The position numbers and the translations under genes are program-made. DNA of 32,000 nt from Gemmata obscuriglobus. Lineage in GTDB: Bacteria > Planctomycetota > Planctomycetia > Gemmatales > Gemmataceae. Positions 10,184 to 30,354 of this stretch are shown one piece after another (position 1 is the stretch's first letter; each line of letters begins with the position of its first letter). The notes under the pieces were generated by a model, which saw only the letters and a program-made list of their open reading frames with translations, ran no database searches and was not told the origin of the DNA. Where the stretch lies: contig NZ_CP042911.1 of the NCBI RefSeq assembly GCF_008065095.1, positions 7,500,001 to 7,532,000 on the forward strand, given 5' to 3'.

Positions 10184-10331
10184 CGACCGTTCCCGCCGGT
10201 GCGAAAAGCCCGGCGCCGCTCGTCACACGTTCCCACACCTGCGCCAGTTGCGCCCGCTCGCGCCGCGGACCGAGTTCCGCTTCCGCCGGTCGGACGTTTG
10301 GGCTATGCTCCCGGCCCTGGAGGGAGCAGAC

Positions 10332-12089
10332 ATGCGGGAGCGGGTTCGCGATTATGTTGTTCTGGTGGCCGCGGCCGCGCTGCTCACGCTTCCGAATCTC
10401 GGTGCGCCCAGCCTGTGGGATGTCGATGAGGGTGTGAACGCCGAGGCCGCGCGCGAGATGCGCGAGAACGACACCTGGGTCATCCCCACCTTCAACTTCA
10501 AATTGCGCACCGCGAAGCCGGTGATGCTGTACTGGCTCCAGCGGGCCAGCTACGCCGCCTTCGGAGTCAACGAGTGGTCCGCGCGGCTCCCCTCCGTTTT
10601 GGCGTCGTGGGCGACGGCGCTGCTGGTCTATGAACTGGCCCGACGCATGTTCGACCGCGCCACCGGGTTGCTCGCAGGAATCGTGCTGGTGTCGGCCCTG
10701 GAGGTGTGTGTCCTCGCGCACGCGGCAACCCCGGACGCGGTGCTGCTGCTGTTCACCGTGCTGACCTTTTACCTGTTTTGGGCGCGACACGAGAACGGGT
10801 CGCGCCGGTGGTGGGTGCCGACCGCCGCGGCTTGCGGTCTGGCCGTGCTGACCAAGGGACCGGTCGGCGTCGCGCTCCCGGGACTGGTCCTCTTGCTCTA
10901 CTTCGCCTGGAACCGCGAACTGAGCCGGTTACTGGACCGCAAGATCTTCCGGGCGCTGCTGGTGTTTCTCCTGGTCATCGGTCCGTGGTACGGGCTGGTG
11001 ACGGCCGAAACCCGCGGCCAGTGGCTGCGTTCGTTCCTTGGAAACGAGAACCTGAACCGGTTCGTTTCTCCGATGCAGAACCACCGTGGGCCGATCTACT
11101 ACCACGCGGCGGCTCTGATGGTGCTGTTCGTGCCGTGGAGCGCGTTCCTGCTCGCGGCCGTGTGGTACGGAATACGGGGGGCGAATAACCTACTCCCCAG
11201 CCCCCTCCCTGAAGGGCACGGGAGAGAAGGCACCGCAGAATTGAGTTCGCAAGGCGCTTCGTTCGAACTCCCCCGCCCTTCAGGTAGCGAGCTGGGTGAT
11301 GGGTTTTCTCCTCGCCCCTTCCGCTTCCTTGTTTGCTGGTTCGGGTCGTACTTGGTGTTCTTCTCCGTTGCGGCCACGAAGCTGCCGAACTACATCCTGC
11401 CGCTGTACCCGGCGCTCGCGATCCTGACCGCGCGGTTCCTGATCCGGTGGCGCGACGGCGAGTTACAACTCCCGAAGTGGCTCATGCCGGCAGGGGTCGC
11501 GGGGCTGGCGTTTACGGCGATTGCCGTTGGCGTCGGGATGCTCATCGCGGGCAACACGGTGCCGGTGCTCCCGCCAACCGCACGGATGTTCCCGGGGTTG
11601 GGGCCGTGGGCCGTCATCGGGCTGGTGCCGCTGGCAACGGCCGTCGTGATGGCGTTCGCCCTCCGGGCGGGGAACCGTGATCGGTTCGTGCGCGCGGCCG
11701 GCATCGGAGCGGTCGTGTTCACGGGGCTGACGGCTGCGTTCCCGGCGCTTGTGATCGACCCGTACAAGGCGCCCAAAGAACTGGTGCGGGCGAGCGGCGT
11801 CGACGACCCGTCGCGTGACGTGCGACTCGCCCACTGCGACTGGTTCCAGCCGAGCGTTGTGTTTTACGCGCGGCGCGAGGTGGTCGAGACGATGAACGCG
11901 GAGAAGGTCGCCGAGTTCTTTTCGCTCCCAACTCCCGGATACCTGTTCATCCCCGAGAAAACGTGGACCGAGCGGGTCGAACCGAAGATGACCGTCCAAA
12001 CCCAAGTGGTCGCAAAGCACTACGACTTTTATCGCAACTGCGATGTGATCGTAGTAACCAACGACGTGACCGCAACCGCGGGCCGCTGA
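10332..12089 (+). CDS. GT39-family (ArnT/PMT-like) membrane glycosyltransferase
   Basis: ATG at 10332 follows GGAGGGAG. The N-terminus (PNLGAPSLWDVDEGVNAEAAREMRENDTWVIPTFNFKLRTAKPVMLYWLQ) and many TM segments are typical of the ArnT/PMT_2 family. It carries the repeat insert at 11170-11305. Confidence 0.8.
   Translation: MRERVRDYVVLVAAAALLTLPNLGAPSLWDVDEGVNAEAAREMRENDTWVIPTFNFKLRTAKPVMLYWLQRASYAAFGVNEWSARLPSVLASWATALLVYELARRMFDRATGLLAGIVLVSALEVCVLAHAATPDAVLLLFTVLTFYLFWARHENGSRRWWVPTAAACGLAVLTKGPVGVALPGLVLLLYFAWNRELSRLLDRKIFRALLVFLLVIGPWYGLVTAETRGQWLRSFLGNENLNRFVSPMQNHRGPIYYHAAALMVLFVPWSAFLLAAVWYGIRGANNLLPSPLPEGHGREGTAELSSQGASFELPRPSGSELGDGFSPRPFRFLVCWFGSYLVFFSVAATKLPNYILPLYPALAILTARFLIRWRDGELQLPKWLMPAGVAGLAFTAIAVGVGMLIAGNTVPVLPPTARMFPGLGPWAVIGLVPLATAVVMAFALRAGNRDRFVRAAGIGAVVFTGLTAAFPALVIDPYKAPKELVRASGVDDPSRDVRLAHCDWFQPSVVFYARREVVETMNAEKVAEFFSLPTPGYLFIPEKTWTERVEPKMTVQTQVVAKHYDFYRNCDVIVVTNDVTATAGR
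11170..11305 (+). repeat. GC-rich palindromic repeat element, in frame inside the GT39 gene
   Basis: One unit lies at 11188-11222 (CCTACTCCCCAGCCCCCTCCCTGAAGGGCACGGG). A degenerate inverted unit lies at 11268-11305 (CTCCCCCGCCCTTCAGGTAGCGAGCTGGGTGATGGGTT). The 14-mer GAATACGGGGGGCG at 11170-11183 recurs at 22390-22403. The segment encodes GANNLLPSPLPEGHGREGTAELSSQGASFELPRPSGSELGDGFSP. Confidence 0.7.
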
Positions 12090-15125: not shown

Positions 15126-15236
15126 AAAGGCGGGTTTCACCGCAGAGGGCACGAGAGGGCGCAGAGAAAGCCAAGAGATAGGAGTAATGTTCTTTCTCTG
15201 CGCCCTCTCGTGCCCTCTGCGGTGAAACCCGCCTTT
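15126..15236. repeat. 45-bp perfect inverted repeat with 21-nt loop between convergent genes (probable bidirectional terminator; member of a repeat family)
   Basis: Arms 15126-15170 and 15192-15236 pair at 45/45 positions, checked base by base. The loop is CCAAGAGATAGGAGTAATGTT. The right arm overlaps the stop codon of the carboxypeptidase gene. Confidence 0.85.
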
Positions 15237-18585: not shown

Positions 18586-18716
18586 AAGAGGATGGCCGCA
18601 AAAAAGCACAAAAAGCACAAAAAGCACAAAAGGAAGCAGAGAACGAAAGCACAGGAATAAGCCCAACCACTCCTCCGCCCTGCCTCTCTTTTGTGCTTCT
18701 TTGCGGCCATCCTCTT
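18586..18716 (-). terminator. long hairpin after the response-regulator gene, with a 9-bp tandem repeat in one arm
   Basis: Arms 18586-18614 and 18688-18716 pair at 28/29 positions (AAGAGGATGGCCGCAAA[A/G]AAGCACAAAAG). GCACAAAAA is repeated about 3 times at 18606-18631. Confidence 0.6.
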
Positions 18717-21066: not shown

Positions 21067-21852
21067 TTACACGCCTGCCGGGGCCGCGTAGGTGCGGTGC
21101 TGGCACACGTACTTGAAGCCGATGCGCTCGTACAGCTGCCGGCTCTTCGGGCCGGATCGCAGGGCCGCGTTATCGCATCCCTGCGAGGCGGCGTGTGCGA
21201 GCGCCGCCCGCGACACCGCCGCACCGTAACCGCGACCGCGATAGGGTTCGAGTGTCGCGACGCCCCAGAGCACCGCCGTCGAACCGGCCCGAGAGTACGC
21301 GGCAGCGGCCACGTCGATACCACCCGCAGAACCGATGAAGATCGCGATGTCGGGATCGAACATGAAGTTCACGGACGGCACCATCAGGTCGGCGAACTCC
21401 GGGGGAGCCTGGAACGCCGCCGCGGTGAGGGCCTTGTACACGTCCGCGCCCACCTGCCCTTCCGCTCTGCGAATCGTCAGGTCCGGTGGTACGGGGTGAG
21501 TGCCGATCGAATCGAGCGCCGGCAGCACGTAGGCCGGTTCGTCTTCATCGACCGCCCACCCGCGGGCGCGGAGTTCGGCCTCCATCGGGTGCCCCGCGTT
21601 GCCTTCCACCAGCACGCCCCATCCGGCAGCGCTGTCGGCGAAGAAATCCCGCGCCACCGGGAGCAGTTCGTTCAGGGACGGCGCGGAAGGGCGCAGCACC
21701 GCGGCGAAGTTGAAGCCCGGCCCCGGGAGTTCGCTCGCGACGAACGCGACGCCTTCCCACACACGAAACCGCCCACGCTTGTAATGCTTCAGGTACGGCG
21801 CTTCGGTCAGGCACAGCGCGGCGTGCGCGGTCTCTTTGAGGTCGGGCGTCAT
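21067..21852 (-). CDS. GNAT-family N-acetyltransferase
   Basis: VATLEPYRGRGYGAAVSRAALAHA is an acetyl-CoA-binding R/Q-x-x-G-x-G/A motif. Length is 261 aa. Confidence 0.7.
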   Translation of the reverse strand: MTPDLKETAHAALCLTEAPYLKHYKRGRFRVWEGVAFVASELPGPGFNFAAVLRPSAPSLNELLPVARDFFADSAAGWGVLVEGNAGHPMEAELRARGWAVDEDEPAYVLPALDSIGTHPVPPDLTIRRAEGQVGADVYKALTAAAFQAPPEFADLMVPSVNFMFDPDIAIFIGSAGGIDVAAAAYSRAGSTAVLWGVATLEPYRGRGYGAAVSRAALAHAASQGCDNAALRSGPKSRQLYERIGFKYVCQHRTYAAPAGV

Positions 21853-21998
21853 TCCGGCTCCTGTCGCTTCCCGCGAGTTGTTGCTTGGGATCTCGACCCC
21901 TCACTTGTCGCCAGGGCGCCAAGGCTTCACGCCCCAGGCTGCGCGTAACCCTCTCATACACGAACCGGCTGTTGGTGTCCGTTTTGGTTTTTGCCTTT

Positions 21999-22062
21999 GT
22001 GGCACAGACATTCCTGTCTGTACAGCGCGAGAAGGCCGCACAGACAGGAATGTCTGTGCCAC
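21999..22062. repeat. 23-bp perfect inverted repeat whose arms are themselves palindromic (CAGACA-N4-TGTCTG)
   Basis: Arms 21999-22021 and 22040-22062 pair at 23/23 positions; the loop is 18 nt. Each arm contains TGGCACAGACATTCCTG. Confidence 0.8.
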
Positions 22063-22205
22063 GAAAAACAGACACACCAGTCGGACCCTGAATCAGAAAC
22101 TCAACCCTACGATCGAAAACCCAGGTACTTCCGCGGCTTCTTTGGCCCGGCCGCGCGGTCCGCATGTGCGGATTGTGCGGGCGATTCGTCGGCATCAACC
22201 CGCCC

Positions 22206-22252
22206 GCGAGTGGGTAGCGAACAGGTAGCGAGTGGGTAGCGGGCGGGGTAGC
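22206..22252. repeat. four GGTAGC(G) motifs at 11-12 bp spacing, including a 14-mer direct repeat
   Basis: GCGAGTGGGTAGCG occurs at 22206-22219 and 22228-22241. GGTAGC starts at 22213, 22224, 22235 and 22247. Confidence 0.6.
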
Positions 22253-22324
22253 TCCAGTCCCGCTACTGTCCCGTCGGCGCCCCGTTAGCGGCGCTGTAAC
22301 ACCCGTTACACCCCATGCTCCCCG

Positions 22325-22450
22325 AGCCCCCCCCGGCCCTCTCCCTGAGGGGAGAGGGGAGAAGACACGCTGGCCGCGGCTCGCGAATCGAATACGGGGG
22401 GCGCGGCATCCTCTCCCCCTCCCTTCAGGGAGGGGGCCGGGGGGTGGGTC
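22325..22450. repeat. intergenic copy of the GC-rich palindromic repeat element
   Basis: Cores are 22337-22358 CCCTCTCCCTGAGGGGAGAGGG and 22415-22436 CCCCCTCCCTTCAGGGAGGGGG, followed by CCGGGGGGTGGGTC. It shares GAATACGGGGGGCG with the GT39 copy and GGGGGCYGGGGGGTGGGT with the helicase copies. Confidence 0.75.
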
Positions 22451-22515
22451 AACGCACCGCGCACCGAACACCCTCGCCTCGATAGTTGCAGATGGCTCGT
22501 GCGTCGGAGCCGGTA

Positions 22516-24816
22516 TCACTCGGTTTCCTCCCAGACGCTGTTCAACGCGCCGATCTGCTCGAAGTACGTGAGCATCCGCTGATAAAACGGGTCGCTCGCC
22601 AGTGTCGCGCTGTCGCCGATCACCAGCAGCTTGCGCCGGGCGCGGGTGAACGCCACGTTCGTGCGCCGGGTGTCGGACAGGAACCCGATCTCGCCCTCGT
22701 TGTTGGAGCGCACCAGCGAAACAACGATCGCCTCTTTCTCGCGCCCCTGGAAGCCGTCCACGCTGTCGATCTCCAGCCCCGGAACGTCGGCGAGCTTCTC
22801 GCGCAGCAGCCGCACTTGCGCCCGGTACGGCGTAATCAGTCCGATCTGCGAAGGCGCTATCCCCAGCGCGAGTAACGCACGGACCTTCTTCACCGCAAGT
22901 GTGGCCTCTTGCGCGTTGAAGCGGCTCCCGGTGTCTTCTTCCAGTTCCTCGTCGTAACTCGCGCCGGCCGTGTCGATGAACTGCACCGGCGTTTCGGTGA
23001 GCGGGTCACGCGCGACACCCGGCAGATGGCAGAGCAGGTGCGCGGCGACGCTCTCGTGCGCAACCAGTTGGCTGTCATAGAACTCGCCATTGGAGAACCC
23101 CATCACGGCCGCGTGCATCCGGTGCTGGACCGTGAGCAGCCGCGACGCGCCCGGCCCGAACTGTCGCACCAGCCGCTCCATCAGGCTGACCGAGAGCCCG
23201 CGCTCCGCGGCCTCGGGCGAAAGGACGGTCGGCGGGAGCTGGCAGTGGTCCCCGGCGAGTACGACCTTGTTCGCGCGCAACAGCGGGACCCACGCCGCAG
23301 GTTCGGTTGATTGACACGCCTCGTCGATCACCACCACGTCGAACCGGCGCTGACCGAGCAACTGGCTGTCGAGCCCGGTGAGCGTGGCGCACACGACCCT
23401 CGCCTCGTCGAGCACGCGCTCCGTGGCGCTGGCTTCGAGCCGCCGCACCTCGGTGAGCATCTCGCGGGCTTCTTTCCGGAGCGCGGCCTTTTCGCCGGGT
23501 TGCGGCTTTTCGCGGGTCCACTTGTCCGCCTGCCGGAACAGCGCGAACGCCTCGCGGGCCACCTTGCGCGCCTGGCGTGCGTCCGGGTGCTTCTCGGCGA
23601 GAATGTCGATGGCCCGGGCGCGAAGCTCCGGCATCACCCGCGCCGGGTGGCCGAGCCGCACCGGGAGTTCGCCCACACCGAGCAACTTTTCGAGGAGGTT
23701 ATCGACCGCGTGGTTGCTGGGCGCGCACGCCAGAACCTTATCGCCGCGGGCGACCAGTTTGCGGATGAACTCGACAACGGTCGTGGTTTTTCCGGTGCCG
23801 GGCGGCCCGTGGATGATGGCGAAGTCCGGCGCCGCCAGTGCGAACGCGACCGCGTCGCGCTGCGGCTCGTTGAGGGTGGAAGGCGACCTACCCCCAGCCC
23901 CTCCCTGAAGGGAGGGGGGAGAACTCGCTCCAGAAACGGATGGCGTATCGGACGTGGTTGGCGGTTCGTCTTCACTCCCCATCCCTTCAGGGAGGGGGCT
24001 GGGGGGTGGGTTGTCTTCACTCCCTTCAGGGAGGGGGCCGCCTTCCTCCCCCTTCCCTTTAGGGAGGGGGGCCGGGGGGGTAGGTCGTTCCCCCAGCAGC
24101 ACCTCGCGCAGTTGGGCGAGCCGGTCGCCGGTGGCGCTCGCGGCGCGGCGCAGCGCGTCCTGCTGGCGTAAACGTGACACCTCGTCGGGCGACAGGTCGA
24201 GCCGCCAGACCGCCTCGTCCGGCAGGTCGTCGTCCGGCGGGTCGATCGCCACGCCGATCGTGGCCGTGTCGCGGTCGTAGATCACGCCGCGGTACGACGG
24301 CACCCGGCGGTTCACGTTCGTCTGGCTGAGGAGCACCGGCGCCCCGGGGCCGAGGCGGGACGGCGGGAGCGGTTCGTTGAGCGTTTTGCGGCCGAAGGTG
24401 AGCAGCAACCGGCCGCCGAGCCCGAATTCCGAGTCGCGCAGGACGAGTTTTGTCAGCGTCGAGCCGTCGCCGACGGGCGAGCCCTCTTCGGCCTGCGCGC
24501 GGCGTCGGGCCTCTTCCTGTTCGGCCTTGGCTTCCAGGTCCAGCAGGTGCGACAGGTTGGAAAGGTGGTTCGCGTCGGTGAAGTCCGCTTTGCCCGCGAA
24601 CCGCACCCGCACCGGCTTGGCTTGAAGTGTCGCGCCGTCCAGCGCGTTCACGATCGCGGCGGCTTTGCCGTCGGGCACCTCGACCGTGGCCCCCCGGCCC
24701 ACGAACGCGATCTTCCCGACGTGCTTCGAGTCGATCTTCCCACCGCCGCAGACGAACGCGAGAACGACCCCGGGCGGGCACCGCGGCGGAACCGGGTCGA
24801 TGTGGATCAGGGCCAT
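22516..24816 (-). CDS. Upf1/IGHMBP2-like superfamily-1 helicase with N-terminal DbpA-like RNA-binding domain
   Basis: Start is ATG 24816 (or GTG 24828). Helicase motifs: IIHGPPGTGKTTT, VVIDEACQ, LAGDHCQLPPTV, TVQHRMH, VDGFQGREKEAIVVSLVRSN, RRTNVAFTRARRKL. The N-terminus GKIAFVGRGATVEVPDGKAAAIVNALDGATLQAKPVRV resembles a DbpA domain. Confidence 0.85.
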   Translation of the reverse strand: MALIHIDPVPPRCPPGVVLAFVCGGGKIDSKHVGKIAFVGRGATVEVPDGKAAAIVNALDGATLQAKPVRVRFAGKADFTDANHLSNLSHLLDLEAKAEQEEARRRAQAEEGSPVGDGSTLTKLVLRDSEFGLGGRLLLTFGRKTLNEPLPPSRLGPGAPVLLSQTNVNRRVPSYRGVIYDRDTATIGVAIDPPDDDLPDEAVWRLDLSPDEVSRLRQQDALRRAASATGDRLAQLREVLLGERPTPPAPLPKGKGEEGGPLPEGSEDNPPPSPLPEGMGSEDEPPTTSDTPSVSGASSPPSLQGGAGGRSPSTLNEPQRDAVAFALAAPDFAIIHGPPGTGKTTTVVEFIRKLVARGDKVLACAPSNHAVDNLLEKLLGVGELPVRLGHPARVMPELRARAIDILAEKHPDARQARKVAREAFALFRQADKWTREKPQPGEKAALRKEAREMLTEVRRLEASATERVLDEARVVCATLTGLDSQLLGQRRFDVVVIDEACQSTEPAAWVPLLRANKVVLAGDHCQLPPTVLSPEAAERGLSVSLMERLVRQFGPGASRLLTVQHRMHAAVMGFSNGEFYDSQLVAHESVAAHLLCHLPGVARDPLTETPVQFIDTAGASYDEELEEDTGSRFNAQEATLAVKKVRALLALGIAPSQIGLITPYRAQVRLLREKLADVPGLEIDSVDGFQGREKEAIVVSLVRSNNEGEIGFLSDTRRTNVAFTRARRKLLVIGDSATLASDPFYQRMLTYFEQIGALNSVWEETE
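23886..24085. repeat. cluster of four GC-rich palindromic repeat units, in frame inside the helicase gene
   Basis: Hairpin cores lie at 23898-23917 (CCCCTCCC TGAA GGGAGGGG), 23977-23998, 24020-24033 and 24048-24070. The segment encodes PLPKGKGEEGGPLPEGSEDNPPPSPLPEGMGSEDEPPTTSDTPSVSGASSPPSLQGGAGGRSP, just upstream of the Walker A region. Confidence 0.8.
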
Positions 24817-24879
24817 GTGCTGGGTCACGGGCGCGAAGGTTGGTGTTCGCGTCCATGATACCAGCCGCGGGCGGCGGGT

Positions 24880-25107: not shown

Positions 25108-25218
25108 TCCGCTCCCCCCAACGCTTCCTGCGTCACTTGGGGGGCTCATAGCGTTGGGGCGGGCGTGAGTCAACGGTCTAAATGCTCATACATGAACCCG
25201 CAATGGGTATCACGTTTG

Positions 25219-25285
25219 TTGACGAGCCGCGACCGCCAGGGAGCGGTGCCACGTACCCCGCTCCCTGGCGGTCGCGGCTCGTCAA
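25219..25285 (-). terminator. 28-bp perfect hairpin after the NIF3 gene
   Basis: Arms 25219-25246 and 25258-25285 pair at 28/28 positions; the loop is 11 nt. It starts 30 nt below the NIF3 stop. Confidence 0.65.
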
Positions 25286-25314
25286 GAACGCGGCACTACC
25301 GCCGGGCACGTGCA

Positions 25315-28248: not shown

Positions 28249-28363
28249 CCAGGGGCTTTCGCCCCTGGCTACGGACCCGGCGCCCCTTCAGGGCTCAAAG
28301 ACAACCTCTGCATTTCAGCCCTGAAGGGGCGCCGGGTCCGTAGCCAGGGGCGAAAGCCCCTGG
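28249..28363. repeat. 47-bp perfect inverted repeat with 21-nt loop; arms contain nested 8-bp hairpins
   Basis: Arms 28249-28295 and 28317-28363 pair at 47/47 positions, checked base by base. The loop is CAAAGACAACCTCTGCATTTC. Sub-hairpins are CCAGGGGC-TTTC-GCCCCTGG and CCAGGGGC-GAAA-GCCCCTGG. Confidence 0.85.
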
Positions 28364-28394
28364 TCCGAAAGCCCTGGCCTCCGACAAACCAAAT

Positions 28395-28448
28395 GGCCGC
28401 GGTCGGCGGGGCGGGAGGTCTGTGCCTCTCGCCCCGCCGACCGCGGCC
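28395..28448. repeat. 19-bp perfect GC-rich inverted repeat (extendable inward with one G-T)
   Basis: GGCCGCGGTCGGCGGGGCG (28395-28413) pairs with CGCCCCGCCGACCGCGGCC (28430-28448). Confidence 0.8.
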
Positions 28449-28480
28449 GTTACGTCACGTCCGAACGCGGTTGGTCCGTG

Positions 28481-28555
28481 TTCTGTAGCCGGCCTCTGTG
28501 AGGCCGGAGCGACATCATTCGTATACCACCGGCCTTACAGAGGCCGGCTACAGAA
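28481..28555. repeat. 27-bp inverted repeat (one G-T) with 21-nt loop, next to the M28 peptidase stop
   Basis: Arms are 28481-28507 and 28529-28555. The loop is AGCGACATCATTCGTATACCA. Confidence 0.8.
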
Positions 28556-28583
28556 TACATGTACTCTTCAACCGGATGTGCGG

Positions 28584-30239
28584 TCACTTCCGCGGCAGCA
28601 GTTCCGGCAGGTTCGCCACCCGCAGCGCCGTCACCGCCATCACCTGCGCCCCCTGGATCAGGTTCGGCTCCTTCGCCTTATCGAAGGTGTCGCTCTGGGT
28701 GTGGTGGGTGAGCCGGTACTCGTCCACGTCCTGGTTGCAGGCGAAGCCGGGGACGCCCGCCTGGTGGAACGGCCAGTGGTCGGTGCCGCCGCCGATCCCG
28801 CCGGTGGTCAGCCCCTTCCAGCCGTCCAGCCCCTTGAGCACGGCCAGTTCCTTGTCCAGCATGTCCTTCATGTAGGTGCGGCCCTGGAGCCCGAACCCGG
28901 TCACCTTCCCGGTGCCGGTGTCGTGGACGATCGCCAGCGAGTGCTTGGGCAGGTCGTCCTTGTACTTCTCCACGTACTTCTTCGAGCCGTACAGCCCCTG
29001 CTCTTCGCCGCTGAACAGGCAGAACCGGATGGTGCGCTTCGGCGGGCTCCCGGCCCGCGCCAGCTTCGCGACGGTGCGGGCCGTTTCCAGCACCACGCAG
29101 CTCCCGGTGCCGTTGTCCGTGGTGCCGCTGCCCAGGTCCCACGAGTCCAGGTGCGCGCCGACCACCACGATCTCGTCCGGCTTCTCGCTCCCGCGCACCT
29201 CGCCGATCGTGTTGTACACGACCACCGGGCCGGGGATGAACTTGTTCTCGATCTCCACCTCCACGCGGGTGGTCGCCTTCTCGCGGGACGCGAGCCGCCA
29301 CAGCAGGTCGTAGTGCTCGTGGGCCATGTACACGCGGGCGATGCCGCCCTCGGCGGCGGCCCGGTCGCCGCGGCCCCAGCCCCCGGTCGTGACGAGCAGC
29401 CCGTGCGGCTTGCCGGAGTCGGACACGAGGCACGCCGCGCCCTCGGCCTTGAGGAACTCGTTCAGCTCGTTCTGGAACTGCTGGAACCCGCCGCCGAACC
29501 CGCCGCCGTCCTTCTTCGGCTGCTCTTTCGGCTGCTCCTTCTTCCCGTCCTTGGCCGGCGGTTGGAGCTTGAACGAGACGCCGGAGTCGCCCGCGTCGTC
29601 CTTTTTGGGGTCGGCCTTCTTGGACTCCTCTTTCGGCGGGGCGTCCTTCTTCGGCTCGTCCTTCTTCGGCTCGTCCTTCTTTTCGGGCCGGGTGCCGAGG
29701 TAGGTGAGGTCCGAGATCGGGGCCACGCGGCTCGGGGGCTGGCGCAGGATCACGGCGTTCTTGAGCTTGCCCTTGTACGCCTCAAGGTCCTTCTTGGTGC
29801 GGACGTTGAGGATCACCACGTCGCCGGTCACCTTGCCCTTGGTGCCGGGCGACCAGCCGGCGGACGCGACCAGCAGGCTGCGCCCGGTGTCGGGCTCGAC
29901 GATCTTCATCTCGGCCTTGCCGCGCTGCCACCCGTAGGGGATCTCCCACGGCTCGAGGCGCACGTTCTCCAGGCCGTACTCCTTCATCTTCTCGGCGGTC
30001 CACTTGTTCGCCTTTTCGAGGCTCGGGGACCCGGTGAGGCGCCCGCCGATCTCGTCGGACAGGTACCGCAGGTTCTTCATGATCTCGGTGCGGGCCTTCA
30101 CCTCTTCGATGACCAGCCGGTCCAGGTCGTCCGAGCTGGCGCGCGCCTTGGGCGCGGTGTCGGCCGGCGTCGCCGGGGTGGGGGGCATTAAAAGGGCGCA
30201 CAGCACGCCGAGCGCGGCGGGCTTCAGAACGCGGGGCAT
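28584..30239 (-). CDS. M28-family aminopeptidase with PA domain and Lys/Asp/Pro-rich low-complexity insert
   Basis: ATG at 30239 (MPRVLKPAALGVLCALL is a signal peptide). Metal-site contexts: VVGAHLDSWD, TDNGTGS, FSGEEQGLYGS, DHWPFHQ. The insert reads KKDEPKKDEPKKDAPPKEESKKADPKKDD. Confidence 0.85.
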   Translation of the reverse strand: MPRVLKPAALGVLCALLMPPTPATPADTAPKARASSDDLDRLVIEEVKARTEIMKNLRYLSDEIGGRLTGSPSLEKANKWTAEKMKEYGLENVRLEPWEIPYGWQRGKAEMKIVEPDTGRSLLVASAGWSPGTKGKVTGDVVILNVRTKKDLEAYKGKLKNAVILRQPPSRVAPISDLTYLGTRPEKKDEPKKDEPKKDAPPKEESKKADPKKDDAGDSGVSFKLQPPAKDGKKEQPKEQPKKDGGGFGGGFQQFQNELNEFLKAEGAACLVSDSGKPHGLLVTTGGWGRGDRAAAEGGIARVYMAHEHYDLLWRLASREKATTRVEVEIENKFIPGPVVVYNTIGEVRGSEKPDEIVVVGAHLDSWDLGSGTTDNGTGSCVVLETARTVAKLARAGSPPKRTIRFCLFSGEEQGLYGSKKYVEKYKDDLPKHSLAIVHDTGTGKVTGFGLQGRTYMKDMLDKELAVLKGLDGWKGLTTGGIGGGTDHWPFHQAGVPGFACNQDVDEYRLTHHTQSDTFDKAKEPNLIQGAQVMAVTALRVANLPELLPRK

Positions 30240-30354
30240 GAGACGGACTCCGAGCGGGACGGTGCGAGAGCGAGCGTGATGAGAGAGTGAACGTATTGTG
30301 TGAGAGCCCGCGCGCGGAAACAATTAGGAAGTGCTTAAAAACTGGGGAGAGCTT

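Follow-up and report, generated by a model that had tools for sequence, protein, structure and literature searches.

In-frame doublets of a GC-rich triplex-type repeat in a helicase gene of Gemmata obscuriglobus and in other Gemmataceae genes

Repeat units at the helicase locus

The window, that is, the whole stretch of 32,000 nucleotides (nt) of Gemmata obscuriglobus analysed here (contig NZ_CP042911.1, positions 7,500,001 to 7,532,000), contains a gene for an IGHMBP2-family superfamily 1 (SF1) helicase, in which an array of GC-rich palindromic repeat units occupies the linker before the ATPase core. This array and its relatives in other Gemmataceae genes are described below. The helicase open reading frame (ORF; 22516-24828, reverse strand) has no stop codon across the repeat segment 23886-24085, which consists of a unit of about 38 nt present in four copies, three of them full and one truncated. 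The ORF matches the Pfam models AAA_11 (1.4e-62) and AAA_12 (5e-56), has a SMUBP-2/HCS1 1B barrel and a DbpA-like domain at its N-terminus, and scores 492.7 bits against the NCBIfam model TIGR00376 "IGHMBP2 family helicase", whose cut-off is 348.9; the encoded protein matches one from G. obscuriglobus with 100% identity. The gene order is sigma-70 factor, NIF3, helicase, GNAT acetyltransferase, hypothetical protein, sigma-54 activator and S9 peptidase, and it is the same in G. palustris and G. massiliana.

The 18-mer CCCTCCCTGAAGGGAGGG, searched with up to three mismatches, gives 13 strand-hits in the window at eight sites (11203, 11272, 22339, 22417, 23899, 23979, 24018 and 24051), against 0.03 expected, and the same eight sites are recovered by the 38-nt consensus, for which shuffled sequences give 0-1. 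Units D and C of the helicase array form one inverted doublet of 127 base pairs (bp). Unit A, which lies outside this doublet, is matched by an orthologous unit in G. massiliana and by a degenerate one in the Gemmata metagenome-assembled genome SMAG_U3706, and unit B probably arose from unit C by partial tandem duplication. Two of the three repeat sites of the window are in frame within genes (Table 1). Rfam models, applied to the window at their gathering thresholds, gave no match.

Table 1. Features of the window
Feature	Coordinates	Strand	Remarks
IGHMBP2-family SF1 helicase gene (host of the array)	22516-24816	-	annotated start probably ATG at 24816; mechanical ORF extends to 24828
Hypervariable linker, amino acids 247-318	23875-24090	-	joins the stalk helices to RecA-like domain 1; repeat array occupies nearly all of it
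Unit A, complete, ACCTACCCCCCCGGCCCCCCTCCCTAAAGGGAAGGGGG	24048-24085	-	reads PTPPAPLPKGKGEEG; inner flank AGGAAGGC at 24040-24047
Unit B, truncated (27 nt, without tail), GGCCCCCTCCCTGAAGGGAGTGAAGAC	24013-24039	-	not in SMAG_U3706
Unit C, left arm of doublet	23974-24012	-	reads NPPPSPLPEGMGS; 2 mismatches to the 38-nt consensus
Spacer of doublet	23923-23973	-	inside the ORF; poorly conserved across species
Unit D, right arm of doublet	23886-23922	+	inverted relative to units A-C; reads SSPPSLQGGAGGR in the helicase frame
Non-coding doublet, 127 bp, 3' of the helicase stop	22324-22450	.	left unit 22324-22361 degenerate; right unit 22412-22449 intact (runs 5,5,5)
Degenerate 119-bp doublet, in frame in the PMT_2/GT39 loop	11187-11305	.	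units 11188-11225 and 11267-11304
PMT_2/GT39 glycosyltransferase gene	10248-12089 (ORF)	+	
Long palindromes unrelated to the unit	15126-15236, 28249-28363, 25216-25288, 28478-28558, 28392-28451, 18586-18716		near-perfect arms

The linker peptide read from the ORF includes ...GSEDNPPPSPLPEGMGSEDEPPTTSDTPSVSGASSPPSLQGGAGGR. In an AlphaFold2 (AF2) model of the helicase, made from 20 orthologues and with a mean predicted local distance difference test score (pLDDT) of 68, residues 248-315 have pLDDT values of 30-42 and no secondary structure, which predicts disorder; the stalk helices (214-244) precede this low-scoring stretch, and the ATPase core, whose first helix is 321-332, follows it. As a single strand the insert is computed to fold strongly into hairpins (-65 kcal/mol, z = -5.2). 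The 72-residue linker has no phmmer match at E<=0.001 among 1.84 billion representative proteins, and a word-index search with it returned two candidates, neither of which scored. The array in the helicase linker would be translated as filler rich in proline, glycine, serine and glutamate.

Linker length in orthologues read as DNA ranges from 20 amino acids, in a Gemmata-like contig without the unit (L123), up to 108 amino acids. The 108-residue linker, from the orthologue P0011 (L125, 8001-10409), is lengthened by an unrelated tandem 24-nt repeat read as EVPGLSV/A five times and has no triplex-type unit; expansion of several kinds is thus tolerated in the helicase linker.

In SMAG_U3706 a doublet is found at the same position of the helicase gene, and its right unit reads LPLPSERGPGGG where that of G. 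obscuriglobus reads SPPSLQGGAGG, so that nucleotides are kept and the frame is changed. Third-codon identity between these two genomes is 0.70-0.73 in the flanks, and the whole linker is 65% identical; in the alignment, read by eye, the units are about 88% identical, whereas the spacer is about 55-60% identical. The spacer drifts, but the units change less than neutral sites do and are therefore maintained by something that acts on the DNA. The doublet and unit A are older than the split of several Gemmata species, and the truncated unit B probably arose later by local duplication.

Much of what a preliminary description had said of the array holds. The SF1 helicase assignment and the frame open across about 200 bp of repeats are borne out, the hairpin core of unit D (CCCCTCCC-TGAA-GGGAGGGG) lies at 23898-23917 as described, the readings PSPLPEG and PPSLQGG are found on the ORF translation, and the insert is indeed located just upstream of LNEPQRDAV/GPPGTGKT. 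The linker was expected to tolerate extra residues, with which the predicted disorder and the existence of unit-free orthologues agree, and in aligned orthologues units are present or absent over the range of linker lengths given above. The likeness among copies was held to be one of nucleotides and not of protein, and this is upheld by the five frames and orientations in which copies are read (see below) and by the frame change of the right unit between the two Gemmata genomes. Other statements hold in part. The repeated unit, given as about 35 bp, is real, but in full it measures 38 nt, to which a conserved flank on its inner side (AGGAAGGC / AGAAG) is added; of the three opposite-orientation copies said to carry a G-rich tail, two do so and the middle one is truncated and tail-less; and the copies in the GT39 gene and in non-coding DNA are present at refined coordinates, the GT39 copies and the left non-coding unit being degenerate.

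The non-coding doublet lies in a gap of 663 bp between the helicase stop and the start of the GNAT acetyltransferase gene (21853-22515), which measures 0-39 bp in the related loci L121, L122, L124 and L125 and also holds an 11-bp tandem repeat, GCGAGTGGGTA (22206-22241), and a palindrome with 31-nt arms (21996-22065). This doublet was also considered as part of an N-terminal extension of the acetyltransferase, which was rejected because the ORF 21545-22519 fails to align with orthologues; the real GNAT gene is 21067-21852. Promoter and terminator scans found nothing beyond chance.

Architecture of the unit and covariation of its runs

Read on its G-rich strand, an intact unit is composed of C5-6 T C3, a TTCA/TGAA loop, G3 A G5-6, 2-3 nt and G6-7 T G3 (T); after the hairpin, then, comes a further G-block, the mirror image of the one in the stem. 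Triplex-type motifs (ITxF class II) are recognized by a pyrimidine stem, a complementary purine stem and a mirror purine block, with stems of at least 8 nt and at most one mismatch and with loops of 1-6 nt. Four intact units of this type are found in the window (22414-22448, 23977-24011, 24048-24084 and 23887-23917) against none in 100 Markov simulations, and units of other Gemmataceae loci also fit; unit C has one duplex mismatch and no third-strand mismatch. Judged from its sequence, the unit has the G/C-rich class II intrastrand-triplex architecture of the BoxC/PIT/TM_ECO kind; hairpin, triplex and G-quadruplex folds are all open to single strands of such sequence.

Of 149 non-redundant Gemmataceae-type units, 103 have runs of the same length in the tail, the C-stem and the G-stem, the tail run being counted with a constant offset of one. 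These comprise 23 units of class (4,4,4), 48 of class (5,5,5), 29 of class (6,6,6) and three of class (7,7,7). Over the 149 units the tail run correlates with the stem run (rho 0.81), as do the two Watson-Crick arms with each other (rho 0.88), and the observed number of units with equal runs is reached in none of 5000 permutations (p<=2e-4). A set of 90 units drawn from many phyla likewise shows a correlation (rho 0.72) between two G-runs, the one that follows the A in the first block and the one that precedes the T or A in the second. Both units of one doublet can fall into different classes, (5,5,5) with (4,4,4), so the constraint acts within the unit and not between the arms of the doublet. 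Block interruptions are also matched in all three blocks, being T/A/T in G. obscuriglobus, TT/AA/TT(A) in G. palustris, G. massiliana and Frigoriglobus, and TCT/AGA/TGA in Urbifossiella, as in Escherichia coli. These data argue that the mirror relation is not a by-product of G-richness, and the covariation is what a three-stranded fold would predict.

In an exact-match scan of one genome per species, the hairpin core occurs in many phyla among the matches listed, and among these the tail CC(T/C)ACCCC stands beside the core in Gemmataceae, Armatimonadota, Bacteroidales, Sphingomonadaceae, Chloroflexi and others. Horizontal spread was considered for this shared flank and set aside, the flank being accounted for by the mirror constraint, with the fixed stem as the search pattern.

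The core is also found in other settings. Streptomyces and Nocardiopsis loci carry it in another conserved context, TTGA(a/c)nnCCTC-core-GATTCCT, often followed by ACGGCTCGCGCCGTGAG (L005, L012, L024, L029, L034, L039, L047, L053, L059, L068, L071, L076 and others); this is a separate conserved element, which recurs over actinomycete genera and a few other taxa. In a Prevotellaceae locus, from the low-GC Bacteroidales (L040, 2540-2660 and 3560-3620), near-identical GC-rich units AGCCTACCCCCAACCCCTCCCTGAAGGGAGGGGAGATTGG stand directly after stop codons, at one site as two tandem copies.

Doublets and their in-frame occurrence in Gemmataceae genes

Gemmataceae units pair as inverted doublets of about 127 bp, with tails outward and a spacer of 51 or 60 nt. 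The sequence that multiplies can be delimited in the BFBZ01... contigs, a metagenomic relative whose GC content and GT39 loop motif are Gemmataceae-like. Fourteen doublets from different genes of this organism were aligned, and units and spacer are common to 12 of the 14; six doublets that could be extracted precisely are all 127 bp long with a 60-nt spacer. The similarity begins sharply at (GAAGA)ACCCAC and ends sharply at GTGGGT(TCTTC). The flanks GAAGA and TCTTC are inverted and thus extend the arms of the doublet, and no direct repeats indicative of target duplication are found at the ends of the 14 aligned copies. That doublets never move whole, their spacers being unrelated, was also considered and is contradicted by the BFBZ01 copies, which share the spacer. 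The alignment points to the whole doublet, spacer included, as the multiplying unit at least in some genomes.

In a set of 34 doublets, unit lengths are 32, 35, 38 or 41 nt, and most spacers measure 51 or 60 nt. As the three runs co-vary, unit lengths shift in steps of three, and because the spacers are multiples of three, the doublet measures 3n+1 from ACC to GGT. This length is found in 31 of the 34, including 12 of 12 genic doublets and, under the strict test, 8 of 9 intergenic ones; with one further base per side the doublet would be a multiple of three.

When metagenomes were scanned with a 22-mer, 82 of the sites obtained lay at a sufficient distance from contig ends to be assessed with a test of the frame by GC content at third codon positions (GC3), which made no false genic call on 14 known cases. 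The repeat is in frame with a coding signal on both sides at 22 sites, has such a signal on one side at 26 and is intergenic at 34; several of the one-sided sites lie within ORFs near a terminus. By this measure at least 27% of Gemmataceae-type repeats are intragenic and in frame. Fourteen Gemmataceae loci were retrieved by the 18-mer alone, of which six have in-frame units in Pfam-supported genes and three have units just upstream of a start codon. The six hosts are a linker between PlsC-type acyltransferase and AMP-binding domains (G. algarum), a Kdo/WaaP kinase, an ABC ATPase, a NagB/PIG-L linker, the MnmE N-domain and a class-V aminotransferase. The GT39 loop is hypervariable, with lineage-specific doublets in Gemmata, Frigoriglobus tundricola, Urbifossiella limnaea and the BFBZ01 organism and with no doublet in three other Gemmataceae-like orthologues.

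All five stop-free frames of the unit are used, with the readings PLPEGRGE, PSLKGGG, PLPSGRGAGGVG, PPFREGGPGGVG and SLQGGGWGVG, and the sixth frame has a TGA in the loop. The use of five different frames places the likeness between copies at the DNA level. A UPF0261 gene carries the unit in frame in G. palustris. In G. massiliana the UPF0261 gene call is split exactly at the unit (L122, 21170-21400), where the N-terminal frame meets a TAA in the tail ACCTAACCCCTAACC and the remainder continues in another frame, which indicates a change of one nucleotide in the C-run, either a real frameshift or a homopolymer sequencing error.

Known repeat systems, rival explanations and neighbouring repeats

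The BoxC or PIT repeat of E. coli is the class II intrastrand-triplex motif CCCTCNCCC-N3-6-GGGNGAGGG-N3-GGGNGAGGG. BoxC/PIT/TM motifs number 3610 copies in 262 proteobacterial genomes, often as inverted pairs, never occur in ORFs in E. coli K-12, are unlinked to transposases and are tied to locally unstable DNA (PMC4666352, PMC5100583). The Gemmataceae units share with BoxC/PIT/TM_ECO the succession of C-stem, loop, G-stem, loop and mirror G-block, with each purine interruption answered by a T or an A in the third block, as well as their multi-copy and dispersed occurrence, frequent inverted pairing less than 50-100 bp apart, location in locally hypervariable DNA and lack of a transposase nearby. 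The Urbifossiella variant, with the TM_ECO interruptions TCT/AGA/TGA, is near the literal pattern save for a 12-nt second loop, whereas the units of the window miss that pattern (CCCTCNCCC...GGGNGAGGG), having a single T/A interruption and longer runs. Two further differences are the fixed format of the Gemmataceae version, a doublet of about 127 bp with a conserved spacer, and its location, as at least 27% of copies are in frame in ORFs while the E. coli BoxC/TM_ECO copies are all intergenic.

Rickettsia palindromic elements (RPEs), which the preliminary description had named as precedent, are a fair analogy for the phenomenon. They too are palindromic repeats of 100-150 bp that lie in frame in many unrelated genes, are tolerated in surface or linker positions and are read as extra peptide. 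The parallel does not extend to kinship: the sequences are unrelated, the Gemmataceae unit is GC-rich, it is read in five frames where each RPE family has one conserved peptide, and its insert peptides have no NCBIfam match. The triplex-type mirror block is not known from RPEs.

Repetitive extragenic palindromic (REP) sequences, which bear a GTAG or CGTC tag at the 5' foot of the stem-loop, and their doublets (REPINs) are similar in their head-to-head palindromes 20-100 bp apart, in the replication of the doublet and in the absence of target duplication (PMC3733652, PMC3116915). In-frame REP palindromes of 20-80 amino acids have been reported, often in DNA repair or helicase genes and including one bacterium of the Planctomycetes-Verrucomicrobia-Chlamydiae (PVC) group (Di Nocera et al. 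2013, PMC3733652). The Gemmataceae element differs from REPs and REPINs in the polarity of the tag, in its mirror G-block and in that no REP-associated tyrosine transposase (RAYT) flanked by units was seen in 1.75 Mb of fetched loci, and its intragenic share appears much higher than that of the mostly extragenic REPs. The preliminary statement that no planctomycete description was known stands, as none of such repeats from Gemmataceae or Planctomycetes was found in the literature searched, but the BoxC/PIT/TM_ECO architecture and the intragenic REP of the PVC group had been missed. The Gemmataceae element is a variant of the BoxC/intrastrand-triplex repeats, set apart by its in-frame life inside many genes.

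The helicase segment can be regarded with good confidence as an array of a non-autonomous, GC-rich, triplex-type repeat in a doublet format of about 127 bp. The doublet would multiply as a unit, at least in some genomes, and its insertion into a permissive loop would leave the gene readable by virtue of the 3n+1 length and the five stop-free frames; such codon compatibility may be the reason for its tolerance in ORFs. Selection on the host gene would retain only readable copies, and the units themselves may be maintained at the DNA level by structure-dependent selection, gene conversion among copies or re-insertion. The Gemmataceae unit may also form a triplex in cells. A wider proposal is put forward tentatively, its chance being well below even: that the exact three-way covariation is comparative evidence for a three-stranded, H-DNA-like fold selected in cells, and that the length steps of three make a codon-compatible family, which would explain why at least a quarter of the sites are in ORFs across the family and why the repeats persist or re-home at the same loops across genera.

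Several points weigh against these interpretations. The demonstration of a triplex is confined to the E. coli motif and to in vitro conditions; in vivo none was detected (PMC4666352). Since copies within a genome share descent, fewer independent events underlie the covariation than its statistics suggest, and a G-quadruplex or another constraint could favour similar sequences. In G. obscuriglobus the spacers of the three doublets are only weakly alike after trimming of the ends (p 0.0015 to 0.18), so that movement of whole doublets in this species is deduced from its relative, and its copies were counted within the window. Translation through the insert, in turn, would follow from the intact ORF only.

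How the repeat spreads is a matter on which other systems offer competing accounts. It may be a REP/REPIN-type element copied by a single-copy, RAYT-like HuH Y1 tyrosine transposase that acts on the folded single strand, an account that concerns the mechanism of spread only and has perhaps one chance in several. It would explain inverted doublets with outward tails, 20-100 bp apart, with sharp ends and without target duplication; the outer end GT(A/G)GGT is reminiscent of the GTAG tag, for which a member of the PVC group, Opitutus terrae, has the mutated form GTGG (PMC3733652), intragenic REPs are already known, and class 3 TnpA-Y1 transposases, which occur for the most part in Planctomycetes, have high-copy hairpins at their flanks (PMC6006769). 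The GTAG-like tag, however, has the opposite polarity to that of classical REPs, being located 3' of the stem-loop when the GTAG strand is read, with a G-run between it and the hairpin. Two Y1 candidates came from a motif scan of the fetched loci, one RAYT-like (L210) and one IS200-type TnpA-like (L241), and inspection of the L210 flanks showed the Y1 gene (191-907) between perfect 30-nt inverted repeats, CCCGGGACCGCGGCCGTCTCGGCCGCACGA, unrelated to the unit; for the E. coli motifs, Holder et al. saw no transposase in the vicinity (PMC4666352). A miniature inverted-repeat transposable element (MITE) derived from an insertion sequence, or a relative of RPEs, is improbable. Here a cut-and-paste transposase would act on terminal inverted repeats and leave a target-site duplication. 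The size of about 127 bp, arms that could serve as terminal inverted repeats and the dispersal in frame over many genes are compatible with it, and RPEs give a precedent for frequent in-frame insertion (PMC10969869). The lack of target duplication argues against a classical MITE, no direct repeats being found around the doublets (no search for a parent insertion sequence was made); the insert peptides have no NCBIfam match at E<=1, five reading frames are used and not one conserved peptide, and the 22-mer has no match in 2.9 million viral contigs.

Two further explanations look to the host or to the protein. Retention of the units by the host for a local structural role, such as slowing of ribosomes at domain boundaries, marking of recombination or replication pauses, or provision of variable linkers, is unlikely, if somewhat less so than the MITE. 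It draws on units conserved above the neutral level in an otherwise unconstrained linker, on the occupation of the same helicase and GT39 loops in several genera, on several insertions between domains and on the hypervariability that TM_ECO loci of E. coli share with Gemmataceae linkers. Yet unit-free orthologues exist for both the helicase and the GT39 protein, the GT39 copies of G. obscuriglobus are decaying, other insertions split domains (MnmE N-domain, Kdo kinase, aminotransferase), a C-run frameshift in the unit splits the UPF0261 call of G. massiliana, unless it is a sequencing error, and promoter and terminator signals are not above chance. That the segment is an ordinary low-complexity linker rich in proline and glycine, evolved at the protein level with incidental DNA palindromes, is scarcely credible. 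It is open, in frame and predicted to be disordered, as such a linker would be, but the same DNA also occurs in non-coding sequence, five frames are read, the orthologous unit keeps its nucleotides while its frame changes, and an exhaustive phmmer search and a word-index search found no homologues.

At the L210 locus, the Y1 gene stands between two genes read as DUF1553- and DUF1501-type, an assignment made without a Pfam check, and a triplex-type doublet lies in a gene 3.8 kb from the transposase.

BoxC and other triplex motifs have been on record for some thirty years without a known function, a known route of spread or evidence that triplexes play a part in cells. A non-autonomous triplex-type repeat, as the Gemmataceae element is taken to be, makes structure and mobility testable, as this family offers many variants, clean three-way covariation, a defined doublet and filled and empty orthologous sites. 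For annotation, the repeats explain much of the length variation and many of the Pro/Gly-rich "linkers" of Gemmataceae proteins; they can break short-read assemblies, and their long C/G runs are likely frameshift hot spots within genes.

The window also contains other repeats. The long palindromes of Table 1, which have no sequence relation to the triplex-type unit, have arms of 27-51 nt that are 93-100% complementary, and may be other repeat families or bidirectional terminators. Tandem repeats of 12, 15 and 30 nt are found at 29484-29681 within the ORF 28584-30323 on the reverse strand, upstream of a Peptidase_M28 domain, which suggests a repetitive, low-complexity N-terminal region.

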